Below are positions 1 through 31,943 of a DNA stretch of 64,000 nt, one piece after another. The translations under genes and the position numbers were made by a program. The notes beneath the pieces are model-generated. The model ran no database searches. It was not told where the DNA came from and was given only the letters and a program-made list of their open reading frames with translations. How positions within the stretch are numbered: position 1 is the first letter of the stretch; each line of letters starts with the position of its first letter. Source of the DNA: a virus; IMG/VR virus record IMGVR_UViG_3300023235_000014; one strand, given 5' to 3'.

Positions 1-1
1 G

Positions 2-883
2 ATTGAGCAAACTTCGGCTGACATTACTAGCCGTGGCATTAATCAATTCTCTGGACCGCTTGCAATCAAGCGTCGTCTTGAAAAAGGCGACCGTGACTAT
101 CAGAACTTGATCAATAAAATGGGCTTCAAGCACCTGTCGGAAGTTCCATCTACCAGAAGAGACACGGGTGAGTTGGCTAACCAGATTGAGGTTACCCAAG
201 GTGGACTTCTGGAAACACGAGTCTCCTCAAACAACATGTGGGAGATTATTACGATTCCACAGCCTCAATTTTTCACTGCAACTTATGAAGTTATCTTCTG
301 GACGAGTTTTACGCAGCACATGAACTACTTGATTGAAACATTCATGTCCTCTTTCCTGCCAAATGACAGGATTCACAAGTTAGTAACAGACAAGGGTTAT
401 TGGTTCCTTGCTTATACTGAAGACCAGTATCCAAACCAAGAAAACATTGACGACTTCACGGAAGACGAGCGTATCCTTCGATATTCTATGACCGTGAAGG
501 TAAAGGGATACGTGTTGGCTCCGCAACATCCAACCAACGCTGTTCCCGTCAGACGCTGGGTCTCTGCACCCAACGTTACGTTTGATATAAGAAGCTACAA
601 TACCGAAGTGGTAGAAGCAAAGCACATGAACAGACCTCCTCAGAAAAATTCTGACAATCCTGGCACATTTGCTCTTACAGATATTGAACGAGACCCAAAC
701 ACAAAGCAAACTCCTACCACGGATGAACGATACCTGGTAAGGAAGGATGTTATCGATGCTCGCACAGGAAACAAGAGGCCACGTTATGTGTCCATTCTTG
801 AGTCAAATGAGAAAAAAGGCGAGACTGTTTACAGGGCATCAGATATAGAAACACTAGAGCAATTTATTAAGACGCTCAAATAA
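2..883 (+). CDS. gp15-like tail sheath stabilizer / tail completion protein. The 5' end lies outside the window: the frame is open from position 2
   Basis: Frame open upstream of the first ATG (107) to the window edge. Segments 'ATYEVIFWTSFTQHMNYLIETFMSSF' and 'ERILRYSMTVKVKGYVLAP' match T4 gp15 ('MIYELSIFTRYEDDMFQIVEQILPYF', 'RRRIEWSLTFEVNGWMYPP'). Lies directly upstream of the sheath gene, as in T4. Confidence 0.55.
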   Translation: MEQTSADITSRGINQFSGPLAIKRRLEKGDRDYQNLINKMGFKHLSEVPSTRRDTGELANQIEVTQGGLLETRVSSNNMWEIITIPQPQFFTATYEVIFWTSFTQHMNYLIETFMSSFLPNDRIHKLVTDKGYWFLAYTEDQYPNQENIDDFTEDERILRYSMTVKVKGYVLAPQHPTNAVPVRRWVSAPNVTFDIRSYNTEVVEAKHMNRPPQKNSDNPGTFALTDIERDPNTKQTPTTDERYLVRKDVIDARTGNKRPRYVSILESNEKKGETVYRASDIETLEQFIKTLK

Positions 884-953
884 TGAGATTTCTAAGAATC
901 AATGTCCTAATTAGTTAGGGACTACCTGCACTTTTCAGGCAAAGGAACAAAAC

Positions 954-3900
954 ATGGCCAGCCAGATTTTCAATTTTCCAGGTTTCTTCGACAGAGAAAT
1001 CGATCTTTCAGCACGGGAGGAAAGCCCTACGGGCACTCCAGCTGGCGTGATCGGTGGCTCCGAAAGAGGCCCAGCATTCGTACCATACACCGTTGGTTCA
1101 TTTGCTGACTACAGAACAATTTTCGGTGATCTTAACACAAGATACGCTGCTCCGTATGCGGCAGATAAATTTTTGGCGAATCGTTCAGCTCTGACTTTCA
1201 TCAGAATTTTGAACGCTGGCGCAAACGAGACTAGCACAGATATTGACACGACCCGTACACAAGGCACTGTCAAGAATGCTGGTTTTATAATCAGTGGTGC
1301 AGCTGAAGTTCCAGGTAACGAGGCCGTAGCTCAGGGCGTAGTCCAGTTTATCGTAGCAAATCATTACGTATCTGGCAATGAAGCCTATGGCTTGCCCATG
1401 TTTACCGATAATGACTCTTTTGCCACTGGGTCTGACGGTGCTTGGAACGGTTATGCCAATCTTGTGCGTGGCGTGATCTTTTGTGCAAGCGGAACCCGTA
1501 TGCAAATCCTTAGTCACGATCAGTACTACAGTGAAACTTCTGACGACGCTGCTACTCCTAGCGACACCACTCGTTACTTCAAGATTGCAATTTCTTCTTC
1601 CCTAGGCACTTCGTTTGGTAACGATGAGGGATTTGATGGTGTTAGAATCTTTACGGCTTCCCTGAATCCAACCGAAGACAACTATTTCGCTAAGCTTTTG
1701 AACACAGACCCAGAGAGGTTCGCCGATGAGAGACACTTGGTTTACGCCGATTACGCAGTGGATGCTGAAATTGCAACATTGGAGTCTGGAATTGACTCAG
1801 TTGCTATCGCTAGCGGCAGCGCTTCTACTTCTTCTACCTCTGGTGATTCTTCTCTGCCTTTCCTAAATGCATTCGGCAGATTTGACACACGTTACACCGC
1901 TCCTAAGTCACCATGGTTCATCTCACAGCCATACGGTGAGACCGAACATGACCTCTTCTACATTGAAGCAATCGATGATGGTGCATATGCCAACTCACGG
2001 ATCAAGGTATCCATCCTTGATATCCAGAAATCGGCCAACCCTAAGGACAAATATGGAACCTTTAACTTGGTTGTCCGTGATTTCTTTGACACAGACGTAG
2101 AACCACGAATCCTTGAGCAGTTCAGCAACATGACGCTCAATCCAGATTCGGACAACTACATCGGTAAAGTCATCGGAGATAAGAAGGCTCGCTTTAACTT
2201 CGATGCAGCGGATGTCTCAGATCGACGTTTGCTTACCACGGGCAAGTTCGCTAATCGTTCACGCAATGTCCGAGTAGTCATCTCTGACCAGGTGGCTAAA
2301 AAGGCAGTTCCTGCTGACGCTGTCCCATTCGGCTTCCGTGGTGTTGAAGTTCTTAACACCAACAGCGCTCTTGTAGACACCACAGGCTCAGCTGCTACTG
2401 ATCGCCTGTACCTCAGAAGTACTGGAACTCTTGATACGCATGGACGACTTCTAGGTGCCATTGTTCCTCCGATTCCACATCGATACAAGGTAACTCGTGG
2501 AGCTACTGACACCGATGGCTCACGTCTTGCAGGAGCACCAGGGACTACTGAAATCACTGATGGTCGTTACTACTGGGGTGTGAAGTTCACACGTAACAGC
2601 AATGCTCTCAACCCTAACGTCGTTGAACTAGAAAACAAGCTCATTAAATCCATGACTAAGTTCGCTGGGATTAGTAAGCTTGACATGTTGGTGACTGGCT
2701 CTCAAAAGGATACCTTCAATAACAACAAGTTTACGCTTGCCCGTGTTGCCCTGGGCAACGGAGCGTTGGCGGACATCACATCATCTGTAAACAAGCACAT
2801 GAAGGAAACAGTGTATTTCAGGAATGGTAGACCTGATGGCTTTGAGTACAAGATTATTGATCCAATGACTGATGACAGCCGCATTACTTTTGCAACTCTA
2901 TATCAGAAGGGTGCGACTGCTTCTGACTTCAACAAGTTCACCAACTTTACCAAATTCACTACGTTCCTTTATGGCGGTTTCGATGGGACTAACATCCTGG
3001 ATAAGAACGCTGCTACTTTCAACGACCGTTCAACATCTGCTGAAACACGTACGTCTGACGGTGAGATCGGAAATGCAGCAGCTACATTCACCTCACCAGG
3101 TCTCGCAAGCAATGTAAACGGCGCTGGAATCTCCAACTCCACTGTGGCCTCATACCGAGCAGCTTCCGACATCGTTACTGATGCAATCGCTTCGAACGTG
3201 AATATTGTGGCGACGCCAGGTCAGCGTGACCCACTCGTTACTGATTATGTCTCGGACGCTGTTCGTGACTTCGGCATTGCTTTCTATGTAATGGACATCC
3301 CGCTATATGACTCAGATATTGAGCGAATTTGGGATGATGAGACAAGTAAATATGTTGACGTTGAACAGACAGCAAATTCCTTTGAGCTTCGTGCTCTTGA
3401 CAATGAGTATGCTGGTGCCTACTTCCCAGATGTTGTCATTGAAGACATCGTAAACCGTCGTCGTGTGACGGTTCCTTCAACCGTCGGTGCCATTGCTGCA
3501 CTTGGCTTCAACGATAGAATCGCATATCCTTGGTTCGCCCCAGCTGGTTTCAACCGAGCTTCCCTTGACTTCGTTACGAAGACCAAGGTCAAGATCAAGC
3601 AACCAGAACGTGAGCGTCTTTTCGCAATCCACGTGAACCCAATCACAAAGTTCCCAGGCACCGCTGCCAATGTAATCTTCGCCCAAAATACACTTGAACA
3701 GGCTGAGTCAGCACTCGGCTCGATCAATGTTGTTCGAATGCTCAATGAGCTAAAGCGTCAGATTATCGATATTGGTAATCGCACAATCTGGGAGCAGATC
3801 ACCCCAACCATCTACACCGAGCTTGAGAAGTCATTCCGAAATGTTTTGAACACCATTACTTCACGTGCGGGTATCGAGCGTTACGATGTTGTTGTTGATG

Positions 3901-4034
3901 AAAGAAACAACACGAACGTTGACCGTGATAACAACAAGGTCAATGTTCGAATCGTCCTTGTACCAACCAGAGCAGTTGAGTTTATCGCTGTTGACTTCAT
4001 CATCACTCGCAGTGGAGTACAGTTCGCCAGCTAA
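954..4034 (+). CDS. Tail sheath protein, gp18-like (paralog A, 1026 aa)
   Basis: N-terminal 'GTPAGVIGGSERGPAFVP' and C-terminal 'PWFAPAGFNRASLDF' match the T4 gp18 sheath motifs ('GPAF', 'WMSPAGYNRG'). RBS AAAGGAAC 7 nt upstream of the ATG. Confidence 0.85.
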   Translation: MASQIFNFPGFFDREIDLSAREESPTGTPAGVIGGSERGPAFVPYTVGSFADYRTIFGDLNTRYAAPYAADKFLANRSALTFIRILNAGANETSTDIDTTRTQGTVKNAGFIISGAAEVPGNEAVAQGVVQFIVANHYVSGNEAYGLPMFTDNDSFATGSDGAWNGYANLVRGVIFCASGTRMQILSHDQYYSETSDDAATPSDTTRYFKIAISSSLGTSFGNDEGFDGVRIFTASLNPTEDNYFAKLLNTDPERFADERHLVYADYAVDAEIATLESGIDSVAIASGSASTSSTSGDSSLPFLNAFGRFDTRYTAPKSPWFISQPYGETEHDLFYIEAIDDGAYANSRIKVSILDIQKSANPKDKYGTFNLVVRDFFDTDVEPRILEQFSNMTLNPDSDNYIGKVIGDKKARFNFDAADVSDRRLLTTGKFANRSRNVRVVISDQVAKKAVPADAVPFGFRGVEVLNTNSALVDTTGSAATDRLYLRSTGTLDTHGRLLGAIVPPIPHRYKVTRGATDTDGSRLAGAPGTTEITDGRYYWGVKFTRNSNALNPNVVELENKLIKSMTKFAGISKLDMLVTGSQKDTFNNNKFTLARVALGNGALADITSSVNKHMKETVYFRNGRPDGFEYKIIDPMTDDSRITFATLYQKGATASDFNKFTNFTKFTTFLYGGFDGTNILDKNAATFNDRSTSAETRTSDGEIGNAAATFTSPGLASNVNGAGISNSTVASYRAASDIVTDAIASNVNIVATPGQRDPLVTDYVSDAVRDFGIAFYVMDIPLYDSDIERIWDDETSKYVDVEQTANSFELRALDNEYAGAYFPDVVIEDIVNRRRVTVPSTVGAIAALGFNDRIAYPWFAPAGFNRASLDFVTKTKVKIKQPERERLFAIHVNPITKFPGTAANVIFAQNTLEQAESALGSINVVRMLNELKRQIIDIGNRTIWEQITPTIYTELEKSFRNVLNTITSRAGIERYDVVVDERNNTNVDRDNNKVNVRIVLVPTRAVEFIAVDFIITRSGVQFAS

Positions 4035-4075
4035 CGCAAAACGGTACCTGTGTCATATACTAACTCTATGCCCAA

Positions 4076-5068
4076 ATGTGGTTAACAATGGAGTTAGAAA
4101 TGAAGAAAGAGTTCAAGGGGCACGCCAATGAAGGTGGCGTGTACCAAATCACAAATATAATCAACGGAAAAAAGTACGTTGGTTCTGCTAAAACATTCAA
4201 GACTAGAGCAGCTGGCCACGCCAGCTCGTTAAAGAACGGCAAACACCAAAACAAGCATCTGCAAGCAAGCTTCGACAAGCATGGCGCAGATGCTTTTTTG
4301 TTTGAGGTAATTGAAGTTGTTCCTGGCGACAGAGTCGCCAGGACAACAAGGGAGCAAGAGTTAATTGACGAACAACTTGGGAGTTGGGAGTCGTGCTTCA
4401 ATTTCAAAAAGAAAACGGTCTGCAAGGAAGGCCCGTGGTCAAAAACTCCGACGGAAACTCGGAAGAAAATATCCGAGTCAAGTAGGAAGATGTGGCAAAA
4501 CGATATTTTCAAAAAAAGAACCAGTAAGGCAATTAGCAAAGCTTTGCAAACACCAGAATCTAAAAAGTGTCGTTCAGAGAATTCCAAGGAAATGTGGCGC
4601 AAGCCTTCACACAGACAAAAACTTGCAAAAGTAATGAGAAAACATTCGACCAAACAAAAACTGACCTTGGCTAAGCATAGAAAAACAGCAACTGCAAATT
4701 CACGCAAAAAACGTGTAAAACATTATGGAAAAATTCTTGATCCGCTGGGCAGGATTCACGACGTAACAAACCTGGAAGAGTTTGCACGGAAGCACAATCT
4801 CGACCGATGCAACTTGCAGAAGGTATTTGAAGGCAGACATCCGTCATGCAAGGGTTGGCGAAAGTACGCTTTAGAACTTTGTGGGCTGCCGTACATACGG
4901 AACTTGAGCCATCAGGCAAAAGACTTTTTGATTGTCGACCCTCGTGGAAACACACACAAAGAAACAAACATCGCCCGCTTCGCCGCAAAACATGGGCTCA
5001 ATAAAGAAAATTTGGCAGCGGTAATAAGAGGCACTCGCAAGTCCCACAAAGGATGGACGCATGTTTAA
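4076..5068 (+). CDS. GIY-YIG homing endonuclease with NUMOD3-like repeats. The likely true start is the ATG at 4100, which is preceded by GGAG
   Basis: 'GGVYQITNIINGKKYVGSAKTFKTRAAGH...FEVIEVV' is a GIY-YIG core with conserved Arg/His/Glu. It is followed by repeated 'K.ISES.RK.WQN'-type basic helices. Inserted between the two sheath paralogs. Confidence 0.8.
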   Translation: MWLTMELEMKKEFKGHANEGGVYQITNIINGKKYVGSAKTFKTRAAGHASSLKNGKHQNKHLQASFDKHGADAFLFEVIEVVPGDRVARTTREQELIDEQLGSWESCFNFKKKTVCKEGPWSKTPTETRKKISESSRKMWQNDIFKKRTSKAISKALQTPESKKCRSENSKEMWRKPSHRQKLAKVMRKHSTKQKLTLAKHRKTATANSRKKRVKHYGKILDPLGRIHDVTNLEEFARKHNLDRCNLQKVFEGRHPSCKGWRKYALELCGLPYIRNLSHQAKDFLIVDPRGNTHKETNIARFAAKHGLNKENLAAVIRGTRKSHKGWTHV

Positions 5069-5165
5069 CAACACAGTTCTACCTATTTACTCGTTGTGTA
5101 GGATATAAGATGAGACGACCCAATAGTTACTTATCAGAGATTAGCAACCTAATCGGAGAGAATTC

Positions 5166-8100
5166 ATGACTACCATCAATTTCAAAAGCGCAGGTGTATC
5201 TGCCCGTGTTATTAACCTGACTGGCCCAACCGCCGTTCAACCAGTCGGTATTCCAGCTGGCGTTATTGGAACATCAGTAAAGGGACCTGCGTTTGTACCA
5301 ACTACTGTTGCAACCACTCAGGACTTTACCGTGGTCTTTGGAGCGCCAGCTGACGGTGCTGTCAACGGACCATTGGCGGTAGGTGAGTGGCTTCGTAATC
5401 AACAGGCCGCAACCTTCCTGCGTGTTCTTGGTGTAGGCCAGGCTAGACGTCGAGAGACTTCGGGCGATAACCAAGGTCGAGTTGTTGGTGCGGGTTTTGT
5501 CGTTGGTGGCAGGCAGCCATCTACTGATGGCGCCTTGGTTGATAATGCTTACGCAAACACAGGTGGACCCGAAGGACGTCTTTACTTTCTGAATGCATTT
5601 ATGTCCGAGGCAAACAGCTCTGGGCTTCTTACTTCTGCTGGCCTTTCAAGTGACGGCGTTCCGCTTGTTCGTGCTGTCCTAATGGCAGCTTCTGGAGTAA
5701 TTCTTCGACTTTCCTCTTCGATAACTGGAGTTGCCTCGACCGCTCCTGCTGCATCATTAGTCTCAACTGAGGCTACCGTTACTGGTACCATGCTAGGTGC
5801 AATAAATTTAAATGGCGGTCGTCAAGAATTTGTCCTTTTCCTAAATGGTCACAAGGGCTCGGATGTACTATACCCTCGTGTTATCACGGCATCTCTTGAC
5901 ATCGAAGCACCAAACTACCTTGGCCGTGTGCTAAACACCGACCCTCTCCTTATGGAGAAGGCGGGCCACGTACTTTACGCAGATTGGTCTGTCCACTCCA
6001 ACCTTGCAGTTGTGACTTCTTCAAATGCAGTATCAACTTTTGCAAGTGGCGTAAATCCAAGCATCGCTGTTGGTGTTGAGCCAGCTATTTTCCTTGCGAC
6101 TGGCTCTAATGCCAGAAACTCGGGTTCGGTCGTGGCCCCAAGTTTCGAAAACTTTGAAGACCGCTTCAAGACGCCCAAGTCTCCCTGGATCGTGTCACAG
6201 AAGTTTGGTGGCAAGCCTAAGAACCTTATCCGTATCCATACACTGAGCGATGGTGCCTACGAGAATGAACAAATCAAGTGGTCTATCGAGAACTTGACTC
6301 CATCCGTTTCAGACGCACAGCCTTACGGTACATTTGACCTACTTGTTCGTCGTTTCGACGACACTGACAAAAGGCGTGAAGTAACCGAAGCCTGGAGGAA
6401 CCTGTCTCTTAACCCAAGCTCAGACAACTATGTTGCACGAGTTATTGGTGACACACACGTGTTCTACAACTTCGAATCTGCCGAGGGTTCACAGAAGATT
6501 ACAGAAAATGGCGAATACCCTAACCGTTCTAGCCTGATCCGTGTTGAAGTCTCTAACCTTGTAGACAACCAAGAGGTTGATGACTCAGCCCTTCCAATGG
6601 GTTTCCGTGGAATCCCCCACTTGGTTACTTCGGGTACAACAGCCCTAGCACCACTTACTAGCGCCACCGCTTTTGATGGTATCTTTAGCTCTAGCGCTGA
6701 GCCTGCATACAACGTAGTGCAGATGCCAGTTCAGTTCCGTGACAACCTAAACATAGGCTCGTCGGCAGCCCAACGACCAGACAAGGGATTGTACTGGGGC
6801 ATTCAGTTTGAGCGCAAACTTACTGTGGCTGAGTCTAACTCGACCACCGAACCCGAGCGAAGCATCGCCGCCTTTACACGTTACTTCCCAGACTTCCAAA
6901 CAGCCTGGCAGAGTGTGCTCGTTTCTAATAACGAGGGTGTGGCTGACGTTTCAGGTTCGGTTTTGGATGCTGACCGCTTCAACAACAATCTGTTTACTCT
7001 TGAGAACGTCAGGATTGTTCAGACAGCTGCTGGTTTGGCTGACACTGTGTCTCTTGTTAGTTGGAGCTACATGAGACAAGGGAATATCACCACCAACAGC
7101 ACCTGGAGACCGCTCGCTTCGTCCGACCTTACAGACGCATCTGTACGTCAGGTAGCTAAGTTTAGTGGCATTATTCAAGGTGGTTTCGACGGTGTGCGTA
7201 TCTTTGATGAAGATACCTCTGATATTACCAACAAGGCAATCACCGAAGAGATGAACAACTCAAATCGTGGTACATCTGACGGTCCATCTGTCAAGTCTTA
7301 CGCAACTGCTCTTGAGATTATGTCTGATGATACAGAAACTGACATTCAGCTTCTTGCTATCCCAGGCATCCGTCACCCAATCATTACAGATAACGCTACT
7401 CTCAAGACTGAAGACCGCTTTGATGCCATGTACCTCATGGACATTGAGGAGTATGACACGCTCAATGCTCCATTTACAGGTTCAAGTGAACAAGACTTGT
7501 CGGTTCGTTTCACCGCAAACAACCATAGTGCTCGTGGCCTGAACTCTTCATTCGCTGCTGCGTACTTCCCTGACCTCATCGTACGAGACGCATTCAACAA
7601 CACTATCCGTCAGGTTCCACCGTCGGTAGCTGTTCTCGGTGCATTTGCACTCAATGATTCCATTGGATTCCCATGGTACGCACCAGCAGGTTTCGCCCGT
7701 GGCGCCCTACAGACAACTGAAGAGGCTTTCATCCCGCTTAACCGTGACAACATGAATGCCTTGCAGGATGTCAAAGTCAACCCGCTTGTTTCCTTTGCAG
7801 GTTCAGAAGGTGTAGTTGTCTGGGGTCAGCGCACTCTCCTCGGCAAGGACTCAGCTCTTGAGCGTGTAAATGTTCGTAGACTGCTTATCAGCCTTCGTCG
7901 ACAAGTCCGCCAGGTCGCCCGTCGCTTCATCTTCGAGCCAGGCCGTGAAGAAACCCTTGCAAGGTTTTCACAGCTTGTAAATCCAATCATGAAGAGGGTC
8001 CAAGACCAGAAGGGTGTTGAGCGCTTCTTGGTGAGAATCGATACCACAACCACCACTCAAACGGACGTTGAAAACCGTACCATTCGTGGTCAGATTTTCC

Positions 8101-8180
8101 TTGTCCCAACCAAGACCCTTGAGTTCTTGTCCATTGATTTCGTTGTAACCAACCAGGGTAACTTCGTCACCAGCGTATAG
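5166..8180 (+). CDS. Tail sheath protein, gp18-like (paralog B, 1004 aa)
   Basis: 'GIPAGVIGTSVKGPAFVP' and 'PWYAPAGFARGALQ' match sheath motifs. Collinear similarity to paralog A throughout, e.g. 'FKTPKSPWIVSQ' vs 'YTAPKSPWFISQ'. RBS GGAGAG. Confidence 0.85.
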   Translation: MTTINFKSAGVSARVINLTGPTAVQPVGIPAGVIGTSVKGPAFVPTTVATTQDFTVVFGAPADGAVNGPLAVGEWLRNQQAATFLRVLGVGQARRRETSGDNQGRVVGAGFVVGGRQPSTDGALVDNAYANTGGPEGRLYFLNAFMSEANSSGLLTSAGLSSDGVPLVRAVLMAASGVILRLSSSITGVASTAPAASLVSTEATVTGTMLGAINLNGGRQEFVLFLNGHKGSDVLYPRVITASLDIEAPNYLGRVLNTDPLLMEKAGHVLYADWSVHSNLAVVTSSNAVSTFASGVNPSIAVGVEPAIFLATGSNARNSGSVVAPSFENFEDRFKTPKSPWIVSQKFGGKPKNLIRIHTLSDGAYENEQIKWSIENLTPSVSDAQPYGTFDLLVRRFDDTDKRREVTEAWRNLSLNPSSDNYVARVIGDTHVFYNFESAEGSQKITENGEYPNRSSLIRVEVSNLVDNQEVDDSALPMGFRGIPHLVTSGTTALAPLTSATAFDGIFSSSAEPAYNVVQMPVQFRDNLNIGSSAAQRPDKGLYWGIQFERKLTVAESNSTTEPERSIAAFTRYFPDFQTAWQSVLVSNNEGVADVSGSVLDADRFNNNLFTLENVRIVQTAAGLADTVSLVSWSYMRQGNITTNSTWRPLASSDLTDASVRQVAKFSGIIQGGFDGVRIFDEDTSDITNKAITEEMNNSNRGTSDGPSVKSYATALEIMSDDTETDIQLLAIPGIRHPIITDNATLKTEDRFDAMYLMDIEEYDTLNAPFTGSSEQDLSVRFTANNHSARGLNSSFAAAYFPDLIVRDAFNNTIRQVPPSVAVLGAFALNDSIGFPWYAPAGFARGALQTTEEAFIPLNRDNMNALQDVKVNPLVSFAGSEGVVVWGQRTLLGKDSALERVNVRRLLISLRRQVRQVARRFIFEPGREETLARFSQLVNPIMKRVQDQKGVERFLVRIDTTTTTQTDVENRTIRGQIFLVPTKTLEFLSIDFVVTNQGNFVTSV

Positions 8181-8201
8181 GTCCAAACCTAAAGGAAATC
8201 C

Positions 8202-9455
8202 GTGAAGCTCACGAAAGTTCAACTAAAAGAGATGATTCGTCAGGCTGTTAGGCAACAGCTTGGCGAGTCGCCAATTGAAGAAACAGTATATATTGGTTCA
8301 ATCAAAAAGGGCATGGCGGCTGGAAAGGCTGCTGCGAACCGTGTTGATAGTCCTTCATACCGTTCTTCAAAAGGCGAAACCTGGGAAGAAGAGCTTGGCC
8401 GCATAGACAAGCAAGCTAAACTTAAAAGGGACATGGAACGACGATTTGCCTCCGCAGGTAAGTACTGGAAGAAGGTATTTGGTGAGGAGGCTAATGTTTA
8501 CTACATGCAAGCCCAAATTGATGTCGGCGGCCCATTTAGGGTGAATATCAAACTAGAAGAACGTGATTCTTTTGCCGAACAAATCTTTGTAGTGAGCCTA
8601 CTGAAAACAACCCAGACACTTGAAACGAAAGACTTCGGCATCGGCATCGGGGCCAAAGAAAATATCGCCCGCTACGTCAAGAAAATGAAGAAGAAGTTTC
8701 AACAGGGTGGACTAAGCGAAGGTCATATGGCTAAAAGCCTAAGGCTTATACTTAGAGAAAATGAAAACAGACCTATGAAAGTTAACAAAAGACAGTTACA
8801 AGAGATGGTTCGTTTGGCTATCCGCAAGCAGCTAAACGAGCGCCACGGCGTTTATTCCCCTGATGGCGGAATGTCTCAGAATGATATCGCAATCCACTTG
8901 GAAAAAGAACGTGAAAAGAAGCGTAAAAGTGATGACGTCAACAAGAAACGCCAGGCTACCAAGAAATCTGCTCGGGGCATGGAACTTGAATGCGGTCCAG
9001 ACATGGACCGTAGGCCCGACAGGAATAAAGAACCACGTAAGCTATCGGATTTATTTGCAGACGGCGACAGAGAGCTAGGAGAGGCCATGTACGAGCAATC
9101 TGGTGGTACCATGGATGACTTCTGTTCAGCTTATATTGAAGCAGCTCTTTGGAGCAGCACAGATGATTCAAGTGGCCAGCCTTTAGACGTGAACTACGAA
9201 TCTGCTGACATCTCCGAAGAGACTCTTAGAAAAATGCAATCTGATTGCGACAAGTTTCAGGAGCTTGCAGGTGAAATGATTGATGGGCGTGAAGAGAGGG
9301 CTGGACACGATTTCTGGCTAACCCGCAATGGACATGGTTCTGGCTTTGCTGATGGACAGTGGCCTGAATACGAAAAAGAGTTAACAGAACTTTCAAAAAA
9401 GTTTGGTGAGACATGGCTCATCGTTGGCGATAATAATGAAATTGAAGGAATGTAA
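8202..9455 (+). CDS. Putative internal head/packaged protein with two tandem modules, each beginning with the type-A propeptide (GTG start)
   Basis: N-terminal 'MKLTKVQLKEMIRQAVRQQLGE' and internal 'MKVNKRQLQEMVRLAIRKQLNE' (near nt 8777). RBS AAAGGAAA before the GTG. Confidence 0.6.
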   Translation: MKLTKVQLKEMIRQAVRQQLGESPIEETVYIGSIKKGMAAGKAAANRVDSPSYRSSKGETWEEELGRIDKQAKLKRDMERRFASAGKYWKKVFGEEANVYYMQAQIDVGGPFRVNIKLEERDSFAEQIFVVSLLKTTQTLETKDFGIGIGAKENIARYVKKMKKKFQQGGLSEGHMAKSLRLILRENENRPMKVNKRQLQEMVRLAIRKQLNERHGVYSPDGGMSQNDIAIHLEKEREKKRKSDDVNKKRQATKKSARGMELECGPDMDRRPDRNKEPRKLSDLFADGDRELGEAMYEQSGGTMDDFCSAYIEAALWSSTDDSSGQPLDVNYESADISEETLRKMQSDCDKFQELAGEMIDGREERAGHDFWLTRNGHGSGFADGQWPEYEKELTELSKKFGETWLIVGDNNEIEGM

Positions 9456-11930: not shown

Positions 11931-14135
11931 ATGACAGACCTGTTTACAGAAGCGCTGAAAGACGCACAAAAGATCCGTGAGATTGCTGAGAAGGACGCCA
12001 AAAACCGTCTTGTAGAGGCTCTTACGCCTTACATCAAGAAGGTGATCGCTAAGGAATCAGTTGGTGACAGTGACTTCTACTTTGAGCAGGTTGAGGACGA
12101 TGAGCTTGACCTAGAAGCACAGCAACCTGCGCCTGCGGCTCAGCCAGCCCCAGCCCAAGGTGCACCAGCACCAGCACCAACCACAGCTCCAACCGCAACT
12201 GTTCCAACTGCCGACCCAGCTCCTATCGAGGACCCTGGGGCGCTTGGGGATGTTGGTGTGGACGCAAGTATGCCTGATGAAGAGGGTAAAATCGTTGTTG
12301 ACTTCGATGACCTTTTCGTTGATGCAGATACCGATCAAGTAACCATTACACCACCAGGTGCTGGTGGTGAAGAAATGGGTGCGGCGCCCGTGGCAGCAAC
12401 TGGCGAAGAGCCTATGCTTGACCTCGCACCAGAAGGCTCTGAGCTTGCTCCTGCCCCAGCAGGCGAAGCAGTTCCTGTCGAAGGTGAAGAGGAAGACCCA
12501 CTTGACCTTTCAACAGAAGCAATTACTTTCAAGGAGTATCAGAGAGTTCTATCAGATCTTTCTGAACGAGTTGATAGAGCACTTTATTCCAATCACGTGA
12601 CAGATATTACACGTGAATCGCTTAAACAAAGACTTTTCGACCTATTGGAGGCCATTGATGGCATGCGTGGTCGTGGAAGCATTTCAAACAAACAAGCTCG
12701 TCTCAACGAAAACAAGTTGGAATTTTTGTTCTTAAAACTGAAAGAGGCGAGTTTGCACAATAGTTACTCATTGAGTAGCGAAACAAAAGGTACCAACAAC
12801 ATGAAGACTCTCAAAGAATATGCAGCACAGCTTTTCGAGGAAGACGAAAACCTCGCAAAAGATTCGGCCAGCACTGGCGACAGCGGCATGCCAGTAGATG
12901 ACGAATACTCTGAGCATGCAGCTGACGTCTCTGGTGTTGATCCAAAACTTGGAAAACCAGAAGACATCAGGGTCCACCAGGACCGACACACTCAAGAGGC
13001 AGATGCCCTTGAGGACACTGACAATCCCGAGGAAATGCCCTGGGATGAAGGTGAGCCTGGCTTAAAAGAAAATAGTGCAGACGCAGACACCGATGCAAAC
13101 GATGACGTAGCAGAGGGTGCAGCTGGATTTGGTGACACAAGAGAAGAACCAACAGCTGAGTTTGAAGTCGACGACGCAGAACTTGCGGAAGCAGTACGCT
13201 CCATCCGCAAAGATAGTATCAAGAAGAAATTGGCCGCTCTCCGTGAGGCAGAGGACAAGGACAAGGCATTCGAAGTTGATGCATCAGAAGATTACCCAGA
13301 TCCTGGCCCAGAAGGCGGTGAGGATCCTTCACATGAGCACCTAAAGGAGGGCGCAGGAATGATGGAAATGGACATGGACGGCGATGAAGAGCTTGAAGTA
13401 GTTGACGACATGGCACTTGACAGTGACCTAGACGATGCAGCTGACCTCGTACTTTCCGTAGACCTCCCACCTGAGGTGGAAGCAGAACTAGCTGAACTTG
13501 GTCTTGATGACCTTGATGTTGATGTCACCCTCAACGTTAGCTCCGATGATGAGCTTGATGATGAGCTTGATGATGAGCTTGATGATGAGCTTGATGATGA
13601 GCTTGATGATGAGCTTGATGATGAGCTTGATGATGAGGAGGACGAAGTTCTCCAGGATGACATGGAAGAAATGGCAATGGAGAGTAAGAGATCAGCACAC
13701 AGAGCACGCTTTCTTGAAAAGAAGCTTCGTCGTGCCAAAAAGATTCTTGAGGCCAAGAACAGAGAACTAGCATCCGTGAAGGGCCAGTTGGTAGAGACCA
13801 ACCTCTTCACCAGCAAGGCTGTGTACTACAGCAAGTTCCTTCACAGGGCTCTAAACGAAAGTGCTCTTACCAAGAAGGCTCTACAGCAAATTGTTGAGCA
13901 CCTTGATAGGGGTCGTACGGTTGCCGAAACAAAGGCAATCTACAAAAAGATTGAGCGCAAGCTCAACGAACACAATAACAAAGCTTCCCGCAAATTGGGC
14001 GGATCATCCTCGACGGTTACTCGACCAGGGAGCGCAAGCTTGAATGAGAGCAAGAACTCTTCTTCAGGCGAACATCCAGAAACTCAAACAGCTTCTCGTT
14101 GGCAGGTACTTGCTGGCATTAAAAAGGGCGAGTAA
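11931..14135 (+). CDS. Prohead scaffold/core-like protein (gp22-like by position). Very acidic, with a Pro/Ala-rich linker and an (ELDD)n repeat
   Basis: 734 aa, extremely acidic and helical, with an 'APAPAQ' low-complexity stretch and eight ELDD repeats. Lies immediately upstream of the gp23-like MCP, matching the T4 gene 22 to 23 order. Confidence 0.5.
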   Translation: MTDLFTEALKDAQKIREIAEKDAKNRLVEALTPYIKKVIAKESVGDSDFYFEQVEDDELDLEAQQPAPAAQPAPAQGAPAPAPTTAPTATVPTADPAPIEDPGALGDVGVDASMPDEEGKIVVDFDDLFVDADTDQVTITPPGAGGEEMGAAPVAATGEEPMLDLAPEGSELAPAPAGEAVPVEGEEEDPLDLSTEAITFKEYQRVLSDLSERVDRALYSNHVTDITRESLKQRLFDLLEAIDGMRGRGSISNKQARLNENKLEFLFLKLKEASLHNSYSLSSETKGTNNMKTLKEYAAQLFEEDENLAKDSASTGDSGMPVDDEYSEHAADVSGVDPKLGKPEDIRVHQDRHTQEADALEDTDNPEEMPWDEGEPGLKENSADADTDANDDVAEGAAGFGDTREEPTAEFEVDDAELAEAVRSIRKDSIKKKLAALREAEDKDKAFEVDASEDYPDPGPEGGEDPSHEHLKEGAGMMEMDMDGDEELEVVDDMALDSDLDDAADLVLSVDLPPEVEAELAELGLDDLDVDVTLNVSSDDELDDELDDELDDELDDELDDELDDELDDEEDEVLQDDMEEMAMESKRSAHRARFLEKKLRRAKKILEAKNRELASVKGQLVETNLFTSKAVYYSKFLHRALNESALTKKALQQIVEHLDRGRTVAETKAIYKKIERKLNEHNNKASRKLGGSSSTVTRPGSASLNESKNSSSGEHPETQTASRWQVLAGIKKGE
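13545..13652 (+). repeat. Coding tandem repeat: 8 copies of the 12-nt unit gatgatgagctt, plus one degenerate unit
   Basis: Perfect 12-nt tandem units visible directly. They encode (DDEL)n inside the scaffold-like gene. Confidence 0.9.
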
Positions 14136-14188: not shown

Positions 14189-16111
14189 ATGAAGACTTTC
14201 ACACTGTCACAGCTCGCAGAGGGCGTAAAAAGACGTTCCCTTGGCGCAGACTCACCACGTCTGTCCAAGAAATGGAACGCCACAGGACTCCTAGAGGGCC
14301 TAAAGGGAATGAACCGAGATAACATGTCTCGTCTACTTGAGAACCAGGCAGCTGAGTTGCTCAAGGAGACAAACGCATTGTCCCTCGGAGGAGCTTCCCT
14401 AACCTCTAGCGGAAAAATCGCTGGTTTCACCAACGTCGCTTTCCCAATCGTACGCCGTGTATTCGCAGGCTTGATTGCAAATGAAGTTGTATCGGTTCAG
14501 CCAATGAGCCTACCAACTGGTTTGCTTTTCTACCTCGATTACACTTATGGTTCATCGGTTGGTGGAGACGCAGGTACATCAGCGAACCAGTTCTCAACCA
14601 CATCCGTGGTTAGCCCATCAACTTACACGAGTCAGGACTCCGTATACAACAACCCACGTGGTGTTGGCGTACGTTCAGGTTCTCTCGCAACTGGTGGCCA
14701 GTACGACCTTGCAGGTCATGGCTACTCGAAGGTGCACAAGCAGAGCCGTTGGCTCTCAGGTTCCGCAGCATCTGTCGGCTACTGGGCAACTGGTTCCGTA
14801 TGGACCGCAGGCGCAGCCGTAGCTACTTCCGCAGACTTCACAGGCTTCAATGCTCGTTACGCAATGTACGATGCAAACGTTGAACGTGATCTCGCAGATA
14901 ACCTTTTGGACTACTCGTTCGCATTCGTGCCAACATCTGAGTTCACTGGCAAAATCACTGGTACCGACCTTACCAACGTCAACCAAATCAGTATAACTGG
15001 TTTCGGTAGTGTTACCAACTCCGCAGTGGAGTGGGGCGAGAAGTACCAGGGTGGACGTGGCGTCCTCAACCTACGCAAGCTAACGCAGCGTGGTGATTGG
15101 GATGTTGCCAATGGTGTCTTTACACCAAGCCCACTCGGTGGTTCACACCTTATGTTCGTTGTGCGTCTTGGTAACGCAGGTACCCCACCAGCTCCAGATG
15201 GCACTGTGGGTAACGCAGTAACTGCTTCCGCAGCTATCGCTGACGCACTTTCGGTCAACACTGACGGTTCAACCCTTACCATCCCAAGCTTCGAGTCTGA
15301 CTTCGCAGTCGATTCTAGCCCACGAATCCCAGAGGTTGATATCCGAATCGAATCCACCAGCGTAACGGCTCAGACCCGTAAGCTGCGTGCTCGTTGGTCG
15401 CCAGAAATGGCTCAGGACCTTACGGCCTTCTACTCAATCGATGTAGAAGTCGAGCTTACGAACATTCTCTCTGAGATGATCACACTCGACATTGACCGTG
15501 AGATTTTGAACGACCTTCTCACACAGGCAGGTGCTGCTAACCTCTTCTGGAGCCGTGCTCCAGGTAAGATTGTGAACAAGTTCACAGGCGCAGAGGCTCT
15601 ACAGTCCAGCACCCTATCCCCAGGCCCAATGGCATTCGTAAACATCCAGGAGTGGTACCAGACTCTGCTTGAGACCATCACTGATGCTGCGAACACCATC
15701 CACCGTAAGACACTCCGTGGTTCAGGTAACTTCATGGTTACCAGCCCAGATGTCTGCACCATCCTTGAGCACCTAGTTGCATACAAGCCTTCCTACAGAG
15801 TAGACGCTGACGGACAGGTTCGTGACAACATGGTAATCGGCGCCGAGGCAGTTGGTACCCTTAACAACCGTTACACGGTTTACAAGGACCCTTACTTCCC
15901 AAGCAACAAGGTTCTAGTTGGCCTAAAGGGCAACACCTTCCTTGAATCAGGATACATCTACGCTCCGTACGTACCACTTATCCTTACTCCTGTCATCTAT
16001 GCACAGGAAGATTTCACGCCACGTAAGGGTGTCATGACTCGTTACGGCAAGAAGATGGTTAGAAATGACTTTTATGCAACCGTGACAGTTCTAGACATGG
16101 GTCTCATCTGA
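14189..16111 (+). CDS. Major capsid protein, T4 gp23-like, with an N-terminal propeptide
   Basis: 'FPIVRRVFAGLIANEVVSVQPMSLPTGLLFYLDYTYG' vs T4 'AVMGMVRRAIPNLIAFDICGVQPMNSPTGQVFALRAVYG'. 'TRKLRARWSPEMAQDL' vs 'SRQLKAAYSIELAQDL'. C-terminal 'YIYAPYVPL' vs 'GIYYAPYVAL'. RBS GAGGAG. Confidence 0.9.
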   Translation: MKTFTLSQLAEGVKRRSLGADSPRLSKKWNATGLLEGLKGMNRDNMSRLLENQAAELLKETNALSLGGASLTSSGKIAGFTNVAFPIVRRVFAGLIANEVVSVQPMSLPTGLLFYLDYTYGSSVGGDAGTSANQFSTTSVVSPSTYTSQDSVYNNPRGVGVRSGSLATGGQYDLAGHGYSKVHKQSRWLSGSAASVGYWATGSVWTAGAAVATSADFTGFNARYAMYDANVERDLADNLLDYSFAFVPTSEFTGKITGTDLTNVNQISITGFGSVTNSAVEWGEKYQGGRGVLNLRKLTQRGDWDVANGVFTPSPLGGSHLMFVVRLGNAGTPPAPDGTVGNAVTASAAIADALSVNTDGSTLTIPSFESDFAVDSSPRIPEVDIRIESTSVTAQTRKLRARWSPEMAQDLTAFYSIDVEVELTNILSEMITLDIDREILNDLLTQAGAANLFWSRAPGKIVNKFTGAEALQSSTLSPGPMAFVNIQEWYQTLLETITDAANTIHRKTLRGSGNFMVTSPDVCTILEHLVAYKPSYRVDADGQVRDNMVIGAEAVGTLNNRYTVYKDPYFPSNKVLVGLKGNTFLESGYIYAPYVPLILTPVIYAQEDFTPRKGVMTRYGKKMVRNDFYATVTVLDMGLI

Positions 16112-16310: not shown

Positions 16311-17768
16311 ATGCGCTGTCAAGTCTGCAATAAGGATTTTGAATCCAAGAGAAGGTTAGCGAGCCATCTACAAAAAAAGCATAGCATGGATTCATGTACG
16401 TACACATCAAAATATTTGTGTGAGAATTCCCGAACACCTGTTTGTGCCTTTGAGGACTGCAAACAAGAACCCAGATACGTTTCTTTTACGTTCAAAAGAT
16501 TTTGCAAGGAGCATTCCAAACATGCAATGAAAAGTGGGGGGCGCCGTGGGGGGCAAGCTCAGGCTTGGAATAAAGGGAAAACAAAATTCGACGACAAAAG
16601 AATACTCAAGCAAGCAATCTCAATGTTAGGAAACGGGAATCACTTTTATGGCCAACAACACTCTAACCAAACGATTGAAACACTAAAGATTAGTTCGAAA
16701 ATTACCCAGGGTGAATTCAAAGCCAGGCTAAAGGCTAGAGAGTCGGATTTCATCATCTCAACAAATTTTTCATACGAAGAATATGAATCTAGGCAATACC
16801 AAAAATTGCCAGTTGAGTGTACCAGGTGTCACCGCACCTCCTACAAAACGCTTCAGTCCCTAGAGCGTGGAACCCTTTGTAAGTTTTGCTACCCTTTCAC
16901 AGTCTCAAGAGGCGAACTAGAACTTGGCAATTACGTTGAGTCTAAAATTGACCATGACGTTGTTAGAAACGATCGGACTGTCATTGCACCTTATGAGCTG
17001 GATATTTATGTCCCTAAATTGCACTTGGCAATTGAATACCACGGAGTTTATTGGCATATGGACAAAGGCCAGCCTGGGTTTGACAAGAAGCTCCACTACA
17101 AGAAGCACCTGCACGCTAAAAACAAAGGAATCAAACTTCTTCAATTTTACTCTAATCAATGGGAGCAACAATCCGAGCTTGTAAAGTCAATGATTGATAA
17201 CCAACTGGGACTTAATGCGAAAAAGGTGGGAGCCAGGACCTTGCAAATAACAATGCTTGATTCGAAAGCAGCAAAAGCTTTTTTCACTAAAAATCATTTA
17301 CACGGATGGTGCAGAGCAAAAGCCACGTTTGCCCTAACTGACAAAGAAACAAACGAAGTACTTTCTGCGCTGTCGCTACGAAGCCCGATGCATAAGGTCT
17401 ACAAAGATTCTTTGGAAATTGCCAGGTTCGCTACTAGGATGAACACTACGGTAGTAGGAGGCTTTAGTAAACTACTGTCATGTGTCAAAAAGTATACTAA
17501 GAGTCAACAGCTCCATACTATCATCTCGTACGCAGACTTATTACATGGGACAGGCCGAGTTTACGATTTAGCCGGCTTTGACTATGTCAAACACACGGGT
17601 ATCAATTATTGGTACACAGACGGCGTTCAGCTCTTCAACCGTTTCAGGTATAAAGCCGAGGCAAACAAGAGTGAGAAGGAAGTTGCTAAAGCACAGAACG
17701 TCCAGCGTATATACGGATGTGGTAACTCACTTTACAAACTAGCTCTAAAGGTAGAAGACGATGCATGA
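16311..17768 (+). CDS. Homing-endonuclease-like protein: N-terminal C2H2 zinc finger(s), NUMOD-like segment, and a Vsr-like PD-(D/E)xK nuclease domain
   Basis: 'CQVCNKDFESKRRLASHLQKKH' (C2H2). 'YELDIYVPKLHLAIEYHGVYWH' resembles the Vsr 'PD...AIFVDGCFWH' catalytic motif. Confidence 0.5.
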   Translation: MRCQVCNKDFESKRRLASHLQKKHSMDSCTYTSKYLCENSRTPVCAFEDCKQEPRYVSFTFKRFCKEHSKHAMKSGGRRGGQAQAWNKGKTKFDDKRILKQAISMLGNGNHFYGQQHSNQTIETLKISSKITQGEFKARLKARESDFIISTNFSYEEYESRQYQKLPVECTRCHRTSYKTLQSLERGTLCKFCYPFTVSRGELELGNYVESKIDHDVVRNDRTVIAPYELDIYVPKLHLAIEYHGVYWHMDKGQPGFDKKLHYKKHLHAKNKGIKLLQFYSNQWEQQSELVKSMIDNQLGLNAKKVGARTLQITMLDSKAAKAFFTKNHLHGWCRAKATFALTDKETNEVLSALSLRSPMHKVYKDSLEIARFATRMNTTVVGGFSKLLSCVKKYTKSQQLHTIISYADLLHGTGRVYDLAGFDYVKHTGINYWYTDGVQLFNRFRYKAEANKSEKEVAKAQNVQRIYGCGNSLYKLALKVEDDA

Positions 17769-29931: not shown

Positions 29932-30331
29932 GATCGTAAGTATGGGGTTCCCTTGTAGACCCCATTATGTTATAATTGGAGAATAGAGAAAGAAGACGAG
30001 GTTCCTGATGCCAGGCACGAAAAGCAAGCCGAATCCCGACAAAATCCTGAGCAAGGCGTTCACCCTCAAGGAAGAACTGGAAGATGCCCTTTGTATCGTT
30101 GTCAAGCTCATTGAGATGGCTAACGAGGTCAACATTGAAGAGTGGGGCCAAGAGGTCTGGGAAGAGGAACATCAAACCCTCGTTGGGCCCTGGAGGAGTT
30201 TCCTGGTGTTGATATCCACTTGCGTGGTCCTTAGGTTCACGGAGAACCTTAAGTTGTAACGATTTGCCGTTGATTAGGACGTTCCAGTGTGAGTTAGCCA
30301 TGTTTGTAATTAGGAACTTGCATAACGCCAA
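29903..30331 (-). CDS. DUF192 family protein (paralog of 27649..28008). Its C-terminal tail overlaps copy 2 of the promoter-like repeat
   Basis: 'HWNVLINGKSLQLKVLREPKDHASGYQHQETPPGPNEGLMFLF' aligns to 'HWHIVLNGEPLRVQVLRTPKEHAQGYQHHKMGPGPHSGMLFLW'. Confidence 0.5.
   Translation of the reverse strand: MALCKFLITNMANSHWNVLINGKSLQLKVLREPKDHASGYQHQETPPGPNEGLMFLFPDLLAPLFNVDLVSHLNELDNDTKGIFQFFLEGERLAQDFVGIRLAFRAWHQEPRLLSLFSNYNIMGSTREPHTYDHAFQNGADT
29936..29985 (+). repeat. Hairpin plus extended -10 element (copy 2): ATGGGGTtcccttgtagACCCCAT then TGTTATAATTGGAGAAT
   Basis: About 80% identical to 29376..29426. Perfect 7-bp inverted repeat. Confidence 0.4.
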
Positions 30332-31257
30332 ACAAAGCCACCAGCAGTTTTCCTGTTACCATGACAACATGCAGAAATGTTTGTCCTACTCGTGCCCGTG
30401 CGTTTTTCAGCTTCAATCGTACTTGAAAACGTGTTGATCGTTTCTCCTGTGTCGCAAGACACTTGTAACAGCGTCACATTTTTTCTTTTTTGAGAATAGA
30501 CATACGGTTGAATCTTACTTTTATTGACGTCATACGACCACATAAACCCACCAGCAGATTTACGATTTCCTAGTGCGCAACTTCTAATGCCAGAAATTTT
30601 TGTTTGTCTAGAAGCCTCTGAGGCGCTTTCGTAGGTTTTTATTACGTTGCCGTTTAAATCATACTGGGAAACTTTTTTGGCCAATTTACGGTTTGGAACT
30701 CCTTTAGAAGATAAACTCATTTTTCTTTTCGACTCTTCTGTGTGCTTTCTCCCGTACATGTGGTGGTCTTTCCCAATGCCCCACTGAGGATTGCCTTTGC
30801 CAGATTTGAAATGCAAGTGTGTCTGTTTCTTTTTTGCTTCAGATATCTTTTTGCAGGTTTCTTGTGAGACAACTTTACCCATGTGTGCTTGGCTCATTTT
30901 TCTCTTAGTGTCTTCTGAATGACTTCGGCCCAATGCACTTCCCGCTGTTGGGCATATGTTGTAGCACAACGTCTGATCGTCGTATGACTTGTCAAGATAT
31001 CCCTGTTCCACTAAAACCAAATTTGTCAATTTATCCACACGCTCAACAAGAACCGCACGAAGCACTGCTGTACCATGTTTGTTGACTACGTGTTGCAAGT
31101 ATTGGTTAGGGTGTTTGTTGCGCCTGAGCTTACTCAGATGATCGTTAAAGCGCTTTCGAATACACTTGGCGCTACCAATGTAGAACTTCCCATTCGCTAT
31201 GTTCTCAATGCGATAAATACCTCTGATTCCAAAAACTACTTTTGCCGGGTCATACAT
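30310..31257 (-). CDS. GIY-YIG homing endonuclease with NUMOD3-like repeats
   Basis: 'GIYRIENIANGKFYIGSAKCIRKRFNDH...VLVE'. Repeated 'HTEESKRKMS' basic helices. Confidence 0.8.
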   Translation of the reverse strand: MYDPAKVVFGIRGIYRIENIANGKFYIGSAKCIRKRFNDHLSKLRRNKHPNQYLQHVVNKHGTAVLRAVLVERVDKLTNLVLVEQGYLDKSYDDQTLCYNICPTAGSALGRSHSEDTKRKMSQAHMGKVVSQETCKKISEAKKKQTHLHFKSGKGNPQWGIGKDHHMYGRKHTEESKRKMSLSSKGVPNRKLAKKVSQYDLNGNVIKTYESASEASRQTKISGIRSCALGNRKSAGGFMWSYDVNKSKIQPYVYSQKRKNVTLLQVSCDTGETINTFSSTIEAEKRTGTSRTNISACCHGNRKTAGGFVWRYASS

Positions 31258-31354: not shown

Positions 31355-31846
31355 ATGGCAGATACACTCTCGGTAACAGATATGTTGCCAACTAAATTTG
31401 AACCGATTACCAAGCGACGCTTCCTGCTCGCTATCGAGGGCATTGACTCATTCATCGTTAAGAGTGCTGCTCGTCCCACCTACAACACCGAAGAAGTCAC
31501 CATCAACTGGATCAACTCAACTCGCTACGTTGCTGGCAAGACTACCTTCAACACCATCTCGGTGACGCTGCACGATCCAATCGCACCAGCTGGCGCACAG
31601 CAGGTCATGGAATGGATTCGTCTTTGCTTCGAGTCCGTCTCAGGTCGTGGCGGTTACGCTGACTTCTACAAGCGTGACATCCAACTCAAGATGCTAGACC
31701 CCGTTGGTACAGTCGTTCAACTCTGGGACATCAAAGGTGCCTTCATCACAGAAGCTAACTTCAATGATGTCTCCTATGACTCAACCGCTGACCTCGCAGA
31801 AATCGCATTGACTATAAGATTCGATAACGCAGTTTTACAATATTGA
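31355..31846 (+). CDS. Tail tube protein, T4 gp19-like
   Basis: 'KSAARPTYNTEEVTINWINSTRYVAGKTTFNTISVTLHDP' vs gp19 'KATALPAGIVEKIPVGFMNRKINVAGDRTFDDWTVTVMND'. Confidence 0.6.
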   Translation: MADTLSVTDMLPTKFEPITKRRFLLAIEGIDSFIVKSAARPTYNTEEVTINWINSTRYVAGKTTFNTISVTLHDPIAPAGAQQVMEWIRLCFESVSGRGGYADFYKRDIQLKMLDPVGTVVQLWDIKGAFITEANFNDVSYDSTADLAEIALTIRFDNAVLQY

Positions 31847-31943
31847 TCAAGTTGCTACCATTTGGTTGCTGTCCAACTAACGCTTTATCAAAATACATCC
31901 TTAGACATCCGAGCTATACTCTAATAGAAAGAGAGTGTGGCTC

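Follow-up and report, generated by a model that had tools for sequence, protein, structure and literature searches.

Phage tail sheaths are usually treated as homopolymers. In the Pseudomonas jumbo phage PaBG, two sheath proteins, gp76 and gp213, share 38% identity and are both found in virions (PMC7412058). This two-protein sheath (Kurochkina et al. 2018, as cited in PMC7412058) has been described as 'unique' to PaBG, and the underlying duplication as lineage-specific and placed after the Mieseafarmvirus/Lupandier split (PMC7412058). Among extracellular contractile injection systems, Afp2, Afp3, and Afp4 together make up the AFP sheath (PMC12961389), and Afp2 and Afp3 chains are both present in the helical sheath PDB entries 6RBN and 6RC8. 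A two-protein sheath is therefore already known as a kind. Here, a tandem pair of tail sheath genes, A and B, is described from a 64,000-nucleotide stretch of virus DNA, IMG/VR record IMGVR_UViG_3300023235_000014 (the window, in what follows, is this whole stretch). New at this locus are the independent origin of the pair, its tandem layout, the subunits of about 1000 amino acids (aa), the conservation throughout a very large uncultured clade, and a sublineage with three sheath genes.

Like the source of the window, PaBG is a jumbo myovirus whose two sheath proteins are paralogues derived from a gene duplication, with a predicted fold in common. The PaBG genes, however, are non-adjacent and encode proteins of ~58 kDa, whereas those of the window are in tandem and encode about 1000 aa each; both PaBG proteins were detected in virions, whereas the window pair is known from genes alone. 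The PaBG sheaths match only residues 739-1025 of A (the C-terminal 28%), with 26% identity. A duplication in common with gp76/gp213 was considered and rejected, as A and B are sisters within the T4-like group, in a tree sampled without PaBG, and as the PaBG duplication is itself lineage-specific; judged by sequence, the A/B pair arose independently of the PaBG pair, and the likeness would be one of function, not of descent. In AFP (Afp2/Afp3/Afp4) and PVC (Pvc2/Pvc3/Pvc4), neighbouring tandem sheath paralogues make up one contractile sheath (PMC12961389, PMC6899500), and their C-terminal sheath domain is homologous to that of A and B. These are bacterial tailocin-like devices with sheath proteins of 350-450 aa and two tube paralogues, in contrast to the window, which represents a phage with a gp23-type capsid gene, a single tube gene found, and ~1000-aa sheath proteins of equal length.

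The closest cultured homologues are the sheaths of T4 (gp18) and of distant T4-like phages, namely Microcystis phage Mel-JY01, Flavobacterium phage immuto, and Rhodothermus phage RM378. All share the order sheath-then-tube, which is also ancestral in the clade of the window, but they carry a single sheath gene of 659-812 aa, while members of the window's clade carry two or three of about 1000 aa each. A literature search for the paired sheath genes of this clade returned only PaBG and a generic remark on two sheath copies; a 2022 survey mentions in passing that some phage genomes encode two, and the phiKZ and Goslar structure papers, checked for sheath paralogues, contained none. PaBG and its relatives are the only phage case in this search with both sheath proteins detected in virions. 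The locus described here constitutes a second, independent sheath duplication, long kept in a very large clade of environmental phages.

Sheath paralogues A and B and the age of their duplication

The genes for A (954..4034, + strand, 1026 aa) and B (5166..8180, + strand, 1004 aa) had been recognized in the initial annotation as two gp18-like paralogues in tandem, each far longer than T4 gp18 (659 aa), and both statements hold. A and B match PHROG 23 'tail sheath' with E-values of 3e-34 and 4e-46, respectively, and a search of the PDB with profiles built from their orthologues leads to T4 gp18 (E 3e-32 for A, 2.5e-33 for B). Single-sequence Pfam sheath scores (21.3 and 19.4 bits) stay under the gathering score of 26.9, and precomputed PF17482 or PF04984 matches are carried by many of the A and B orthologues. 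The AlphaFold models (predicted local distance difference test, pLDDT, of 82.5 for A and 71.9 for B) match the T4 gp18, KP1, phiKZ, pyocin, AFP, and PVC sheaths with a Foldseek probability of 1.0, the top matches being the T4 and KP1 sheaths for A and T4 gp18 for B. By sequence and predicted fold, A and B are T4 gp18-like contractile tail sheath proteins.

The identity of the two paralogues, first put at about 40%, is lower: 29% over 1080 columns by BLASTP (E 8e-121) and 31% over 927 columns by hhalign, with A-B values of 28-41% on conserved columns across the clade. As an alignment result, this similarity is far beyond chance. The profile-profile alignment (927 columns) is colinear over the full length, with no gain or loss of a domain. 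In solved sheaths, an N-terminal arm and a C-terminal core form the inter-subunit mesh. The 162 columns conserved in both paralogues cluster at residues 1-100 and 750-950 and take in the stretch that aligns to the C-terminal domain of T4 gp18. A and B share a conserved N-terminal motif, P.G.PAGVIG...GPAFVPVTV, and conserved C-terminal strands, VPT..EF..DF; their N-termini lack predicted structure in the monomer models, as would be the case for exchanged arms. A further 27 columns are conserved within each paralogue yet differ between A and B.

For the comparison with relatives, 114 related IMG/VR loci were collected, independently by A-derived and by B-derived peptide patterns. A precedes B at all 96 A-B junctions of these relatives, which supplies the synteny called for initially, and the spacer is at most 138 nt at 87 of the 96 (median ~54 nt). 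Neither A nor B is missing from any locus with enough sequence, the order being upstream gene, A, B. On conserved columns, A-A identity is at least 45% and B-B identity at least 42%, against the 28-41% between paralogues. In phylogenies reconstructed by distance-based neighbour-joining, not by maximum likelihood, A and B are each monophyletic in 200 of 200 bootstraps (50 of 50 each in another tree). When rooted with T4-type gp18, they form sister clades in 177 of 200 bootstraps, to the exclusion of the sheaths of Mel-JY01, immuto, and RM378 and of both sheaths of LR756508, an uncultured phage described below. Since A and B are reciprocally monophyletic and sisters, one duplication occurred, on the stem of the clade. 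An ancient date for the duplication, and its persistence as neighbouring genes in the order A-B throughout a large clade, can be stated with high confidence.

Constraint is evident in both copies. Nei-Gojobori ratios of nonsynonymous to synonymous substitution rates (dN/dS) in moderately diverged orthologue pairs range from 0.036 to 0.167 for A and from 0.037 to 0.161 for B, with medians of 0.10 and 0.056, respectively, and there is little doubt that each gene is under strong purifying selection. Both are intact open reading frames (ORFs) at every locus that spans the whole gene. For the same genome pairs, A-A and B-B distances are correlated (r = 0.90, slope 0.95); the A-B distance is 1.29 within genomes vs 1.32 between genomes, and a blastn comparison of A with B found no nucleotide similarity. 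Because the distances co-vary, the within- and between-genome values nearly coincide, and blastn is empty, there is no gene conversion and neither copy evolves faster; concerted evolution was rejected on the same grounds.

Codon usage sets the pair apart from most of the window. The effective number of codons (Nc) is 48.5 for A, 45.8 for B, and 37.7 for the capsid gene, so that among the long genes of the window the bias of A and B is second only to that of the capsid gene. The correlation of relative synonymous codon usage (RSCU) with the capsid and tube genes is highest for A (0.76) and B (0.82); it is ~0.1 for the endonuclease genes, including the GIY-YIG gene between A and B (r 0.08). Both sheath proteins are, to judge from this usage, probably made at the levels of major virion proteins.

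The source phage is uncultured and T4-like, with a genome of ~285 kb (the longest assembly carrying the exact A protein is 284,850 bp). Independent assemblies from ENA, JGI, and Logan carry an identical A protein, so the arrangement of the sheath locus is not an assembly artefact. A megablast search with the 7.2-kb sheath region against 50,697 phage genomes gave no match; accordingly, there is no close cultured relative. In protein-database searches at E ≤ 1e-10, A-type clusters numbered more than 1,300 and B-type clusters more than 2,300; nearly all of their entries are unannotated or labelled 'hypothetical protein', and numerous A and B matches sit on contigs of identical size, up to 507,812 bp. 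Among 185,579 species genomes, A homologues were found in three metagenome-assembled bins only, which offered no host clue. The A and B orthologues WC761_01400 and WC761_01405, both labelled 'hypothetical protein', are located on a 318,917-bp contig in a 'Candidatus Paceibacterota' bin, and another sheath orthologue has been placed in a Patescibacteria bin (JBAYGC010000019.1). Sheath-bearing contigs in such candidate-phyla-radiation bins are likely mis-binned phage contigs. The results permit correction of the 'hypothetical protein' labels and of the Patescibacteria/Paceibacterota binning in public records.

Some relatives depart from the two-gene pattern. At L091:3104-13048, three sheath genes (A, 1075 aa; B1, 1191 aa; B2, 1015 aa) are consecutive and the tube gene comes next; the same arrangement is found at L085:18-5044. 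B1 and B2 are 61% identical. As the L085 orthologues are only 74-75% identical to those of L091, the triple arrangement is conserved in at least two distinct phages. Other orthologues are extended by insertions of ~120-190 aa: the B proteins of L020, L096, and L097 measure 1138-1176 aa, the additional segment following about residue 135, and the A proteins of L037 and L069 measure 1172-1197 aa, which suggests a decoration with variable surface domains. Outside the clade, the 484-kb uncultured phage LR756508.1 (L121, 202463-208426) encodes two 824-aa sheath proteins in genes ~1 kb apart. The tree rejects these as A/B orthologues and as mutual sisters, since one groups with Mel-JY01 (190 of 200 bootstraps) and the other has a position close to the base of the A+B clade. 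This pair may represent a further independent acquisition or duplication.

Composition of the sheath

The best-supported explanation of the locus is that A and B together form a heteromeric, two-component contractile sheath, and this reading of the gene sequences is considered probable. A single ancient tandem duplication of a T4-type sheath gene, on the stem of a large, uncultivated clade of gp23-type jumbo phages, produced two proteins that each keep the complete sheath architecture, including the conserved N-terminal arm and the C-terminal core. These would co-assemble around a single tube protein, e.g., as alternating rings or as alternating subunits within each ring. The constraint on both copies argues for a functional need for two sheath proteins, as opposed to a passing redundancy. 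A heteromeric sheath was one of two possibilities raised in the initial annotation, and it has gained support from genes that are intact, constrained, linked, colinear, and codon-optimised, with co-assembly in the virion as its inferred part. The full account, in which an ancient duplication and a conserved pair are joined to a two-component sheath and a recent endonuclease passenger, is likewise held to be the probable one. A stronger proposition has about an even chance: the uncultured jumbo phages of this clade, abundant and found worldwide, would form a contractile sheath that is obligately heteromeric, with two ~1000-aa paralogues (three in one sublineage) placed in an ordered arrangement around one tube protein.

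Several points weigh against a two-component sheath. The presence of A and B in particles is deduced from their genes, and no cultured relative carries the gene pair. The trees are of the neighbour-joining type only, with the sister grouping of A and B at 88% support and not 100%, and expression is gauged by codon bias, which is only a proxy. Equal conservation, moreover, is compatible with one of the paralogues forming a few specialised rings. If the two-component reading is true, such sheaths would be a common, independently evolved solution in large phages, and the clade would provide a natural system for studying how subunit heterogeneity tunes sheath assembly or contraction.

The possibility of a few specialised rings leads to the strongest of the alternatives, a division of labour: most of the helical sheath would consist of one paralogue, and the other would be confined to specialised layers such as the rings proximal to the baseplate or neck, like Afp4, Pvc3, and Pvc4. 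Position-specialised sheath paralogues do exist in AFP and PVC (PMC12961389; PDB matches), the third paralogue of the L091/L085 sublineage indicates that the family can diversify further, and the 27 columns that separate two internally conserved paralogues would fit distinct roles. However, A and B have the same domain architecture, length, and evolutionary rate, and both show the codon usage of major virion proteins, which would be unexpected for a protein present in 6-12 copies, although these arguments are all indirect. A strict division of labour thus seems rather unlikely, though it deserves serious consideration.

Two complete sheath genes would, in principle, also permit alternative sheaths, i.e., tails made of A or of B according to host or conditions, and hence two types of particles. 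The genes, however, lie 40-60 nt apart on the same strand, and consensus scans gave no + strand promoter or terminator between them, so that A and B are almost certainly co-transcribed; no invertible element was seen. More generally, scans of 600-8600 for consensus sigma-70 promoters and intrinsic terminators returned no more matches than shuffled sequence, the T4 late-promoter consensus TATAAATA was not found in the window, and the motif TATAAGAT, which occurs at the A-B junction, is not enriched. The search for tube genes gave a single one, and a second copy of a baseplate gene was not noticed in the window, although none was sought systematically. Alternative sheaths are accordingly regarded as improbable. 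Still less credible is a non-functional or decaying copy with no role in the virion, for which no supporting point was found: both ORFs are intact at fully covered loci, both are retained over a very deep divergence and are codon-biased, and dN/dS values of 0.04-0.17 in the two copies are the opposite of the decay that had been named as evidence against a shared role.

The GIY-YIG insertion between A and B

The two sheath genes are separated in the window, as first noted, by a free-standing GIY-YIG homing endonuclease gene (4076..5068, + strand). Its longest ORF encodes 330 aa, while gene callers give 322 aa; the start is likely the ATG at 4100 (322 aa), which is preceded by a TGGAG ribosome-binding site. 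The protein matches Pfam GIY-YIG (PF01541) with 39.7 bits (E 6e-10) against a cutoff of 22.6, as well as PHROG 314 homing endonuclease (E 6e-20), and the GVY...YVG...R...E motifs can be seen in its translation. An I-HmuI NUMOD-like tail scores 24.4 bits (E 2e-5), below the cutoff of 27, and residues 277-329 match the helix-turn-helix (HTH) family PHROG 925 (E 5e-8) and PHROG 2081 (E 4.5e-17). With the GIY-YIG endonucleases of T-even phages (the Seg family, with an I-TevI-like catalytic domain) it shares the combination of an N-terminal GIY-YIG domain with a C-terminal, putatively DNA-binding NUMOD/HTH-like region, the location between two conserved essential genes, and a presence that varies among relatives. 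It differs from them in having no close sequence relative (the best phage match is 33% identical) and a Pfam SegE_GIY-YIG match below threshold.

The gene is carried by a mobile insertion of 1077 bp (4027..5103), whose limits were defined by alignment to the closest relative, L123. In this 343-kb contig, A and B are 81% and 78% identical to those of the window, and the A-B gap is 57 nt, without the endonuclease; the gene is likewise absent between A and B in L124 and L125 (sheath A 74% and 69% identical, respectively). Positions 3900-4026 and 5104-5299 of the window align contiguously to 12938-13064 and 13065-13260 of L123, with 87% and 85% identity, and the endonuclease-free junction of the L123 type reads ...GGAGTACAGTTCGTATAAGATGAG.... 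The insertion starts within the last codon of A: where L123 ends in ...VQFV*, the window ends in ...VQFAS*, with a stop codon provided by the insert. What follows is the native A-B spacer (5104..5165, + strand, 62 nt), which contains the GGAG ribosome-binding site of B and is 85% identical to the region of the 57-nt spacer of L123. The insertion was found in six independent assemblies of the source phage. It is, at a high level of confidence, a recent insertion with exact junctions. The homing endonuclease gene, which is unrelated to the sheath genes, entered the last codon of A in the lineage of the source phage only, without damage to either sheath gene or to the native ribosome-binding site of B. 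The locus provides a clean case, resolved to the base pair, of a free-standing homing endonuclease in the stop-codon region of an essential structural gene that remains undamaged.

Inserts of 0.9-1.3 kb are present at seven of the 96 A-B junctions, carrying three distantly related GIY-YIG genes (33-37% identical), three copies of a 256-aa ORF, and one Terminase_6N-like ORF. The last of these encodes 375 aa with a Terminase_6N-like ATPase domain (L086:964-2091). The 256-aa ORF, without a family match, is exemplified by L019:11582-12352 (- strand) and also occurs as junction cargo in L024 and L088. As the endonuclease is absent in the closest relatives and has clean junctions, and as inserts are rare between A and B, it did not cause the duplication. 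The idea of a recent duplication generated or mediated by a homing endonuclease, raised initially, draws on the position of the GIY-YIG gene exactly between the copies and on the frequency of homing endonuclease genes nearby in relatives, but its probability is close to nil, given an A-B identity of 29-31% with no nucleotide similarity and a pair that predates the radiation of its clade (orthologues diverged to ~45% identity, mostly with short spacers), against an insertion that is recent.

Tube gene, gene order, and other genes of the window

The tail tube gene encodes a gp19-like protein of 163 aa (31355..31846, + strand). Its assignment rests on a match to PHROG 4542 tail tube (E 1.4e-28) and on 48% identity with the Gp19-like tube protein of Mel-JY01; the Pfam gp19 match (E 6e-5) is below threshold. 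A tblastn search with the Mel-JY01 tube protein found this single tube gene in the window. Its displacement by about 23 kb, reported at the outset, is borne out: the gene starts 23.2 kb past the stop codon of B and is not next to the sheath genes. In relatives with the order A-B-tube, the gap between B and the tube gene is at most 204 nt at 26 of 57 junctions, and the other 31 contain inserts of 0.4-4 kb, often with HNH or GIY-YIG genes.

Most relatives show the order capsid gene ... upstream gene, A, B, tube gene, and then a homologue of the window ORF 31935-32792. In the window and in L123-L125, by contrast, the upstream gene, A, and B are followed by the genes of the head module and the capsid gene; in the window the tube gene comes ~15 kb after the capsid gene. 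The intervening 23-kb block (8181-31354) comprises a head module, including a 734-aa ORF and the capsid gene, that is located 5' of the sheath genes in most relatives. The displacement of the tube gene is a rearrangement specific to this sublineage and separate in time from the sheath duplication. The upstream gene itself is represented by its 3' part (1..883, + strand); it starts upstream of the window and is called as a conserved 405-aa gene in the parent contigs. Its homologue is found directly 5' of A in nearly every related locus, and its product is weakly similar to Mel-JY01 WWT39321.

The window further encodes a gp23-type major capsid protein (14189-16111, Pfam Gp23 E 1.6e-79) and a gp6-like baseplate wedge protein. 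Immediately 5' of the tube gene lies a second GIY-YIG/NUMOD homing endonuclease gene (30310..31257, - strand), with Pfam matches to GIY-YIG, NUMOD1, NUMOD3, and the I-HmuI NUMOD-like domain; its product is 33% identical to that of the GIY-YIG gene between A and B. The structural region is dense in mobile and nuclease genes (16311-17768, 17761-19806, 22109-22882, and 30310-31257): an HNH-type homing endonuclease gene is located directly 3' of the capsid gene, and the region also contains a TnsA-like endonuclease fused to a methylase domain and an endonuclease VII-like ORF.

Two large proteins are encoded on the opposite strand, and neither gave a match to PDB sequences. The first (38184-40922, - strand, 912 aa) contains a Major Vault Protein shoulder domain (PF11978, E 6.7e-24, 84.6 bits against a cutoff of 25), with weak Vault_3 and SPFH/Band_7 matches, and its codon usage is like that of the capsid and sheath genes; a vault/SPFH-like protein is unusual in a phage. 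The second (45392-47512, - strand, 706 aa) matches Volactin, an archaeal actin-like family (PF25216, E 7.7e-58), and is interrupted at about residues 182-551 by an intein with Hint and LAGLIDADG domains; from these domain matches, it would be a phage-encoded actin homologue with an intein.

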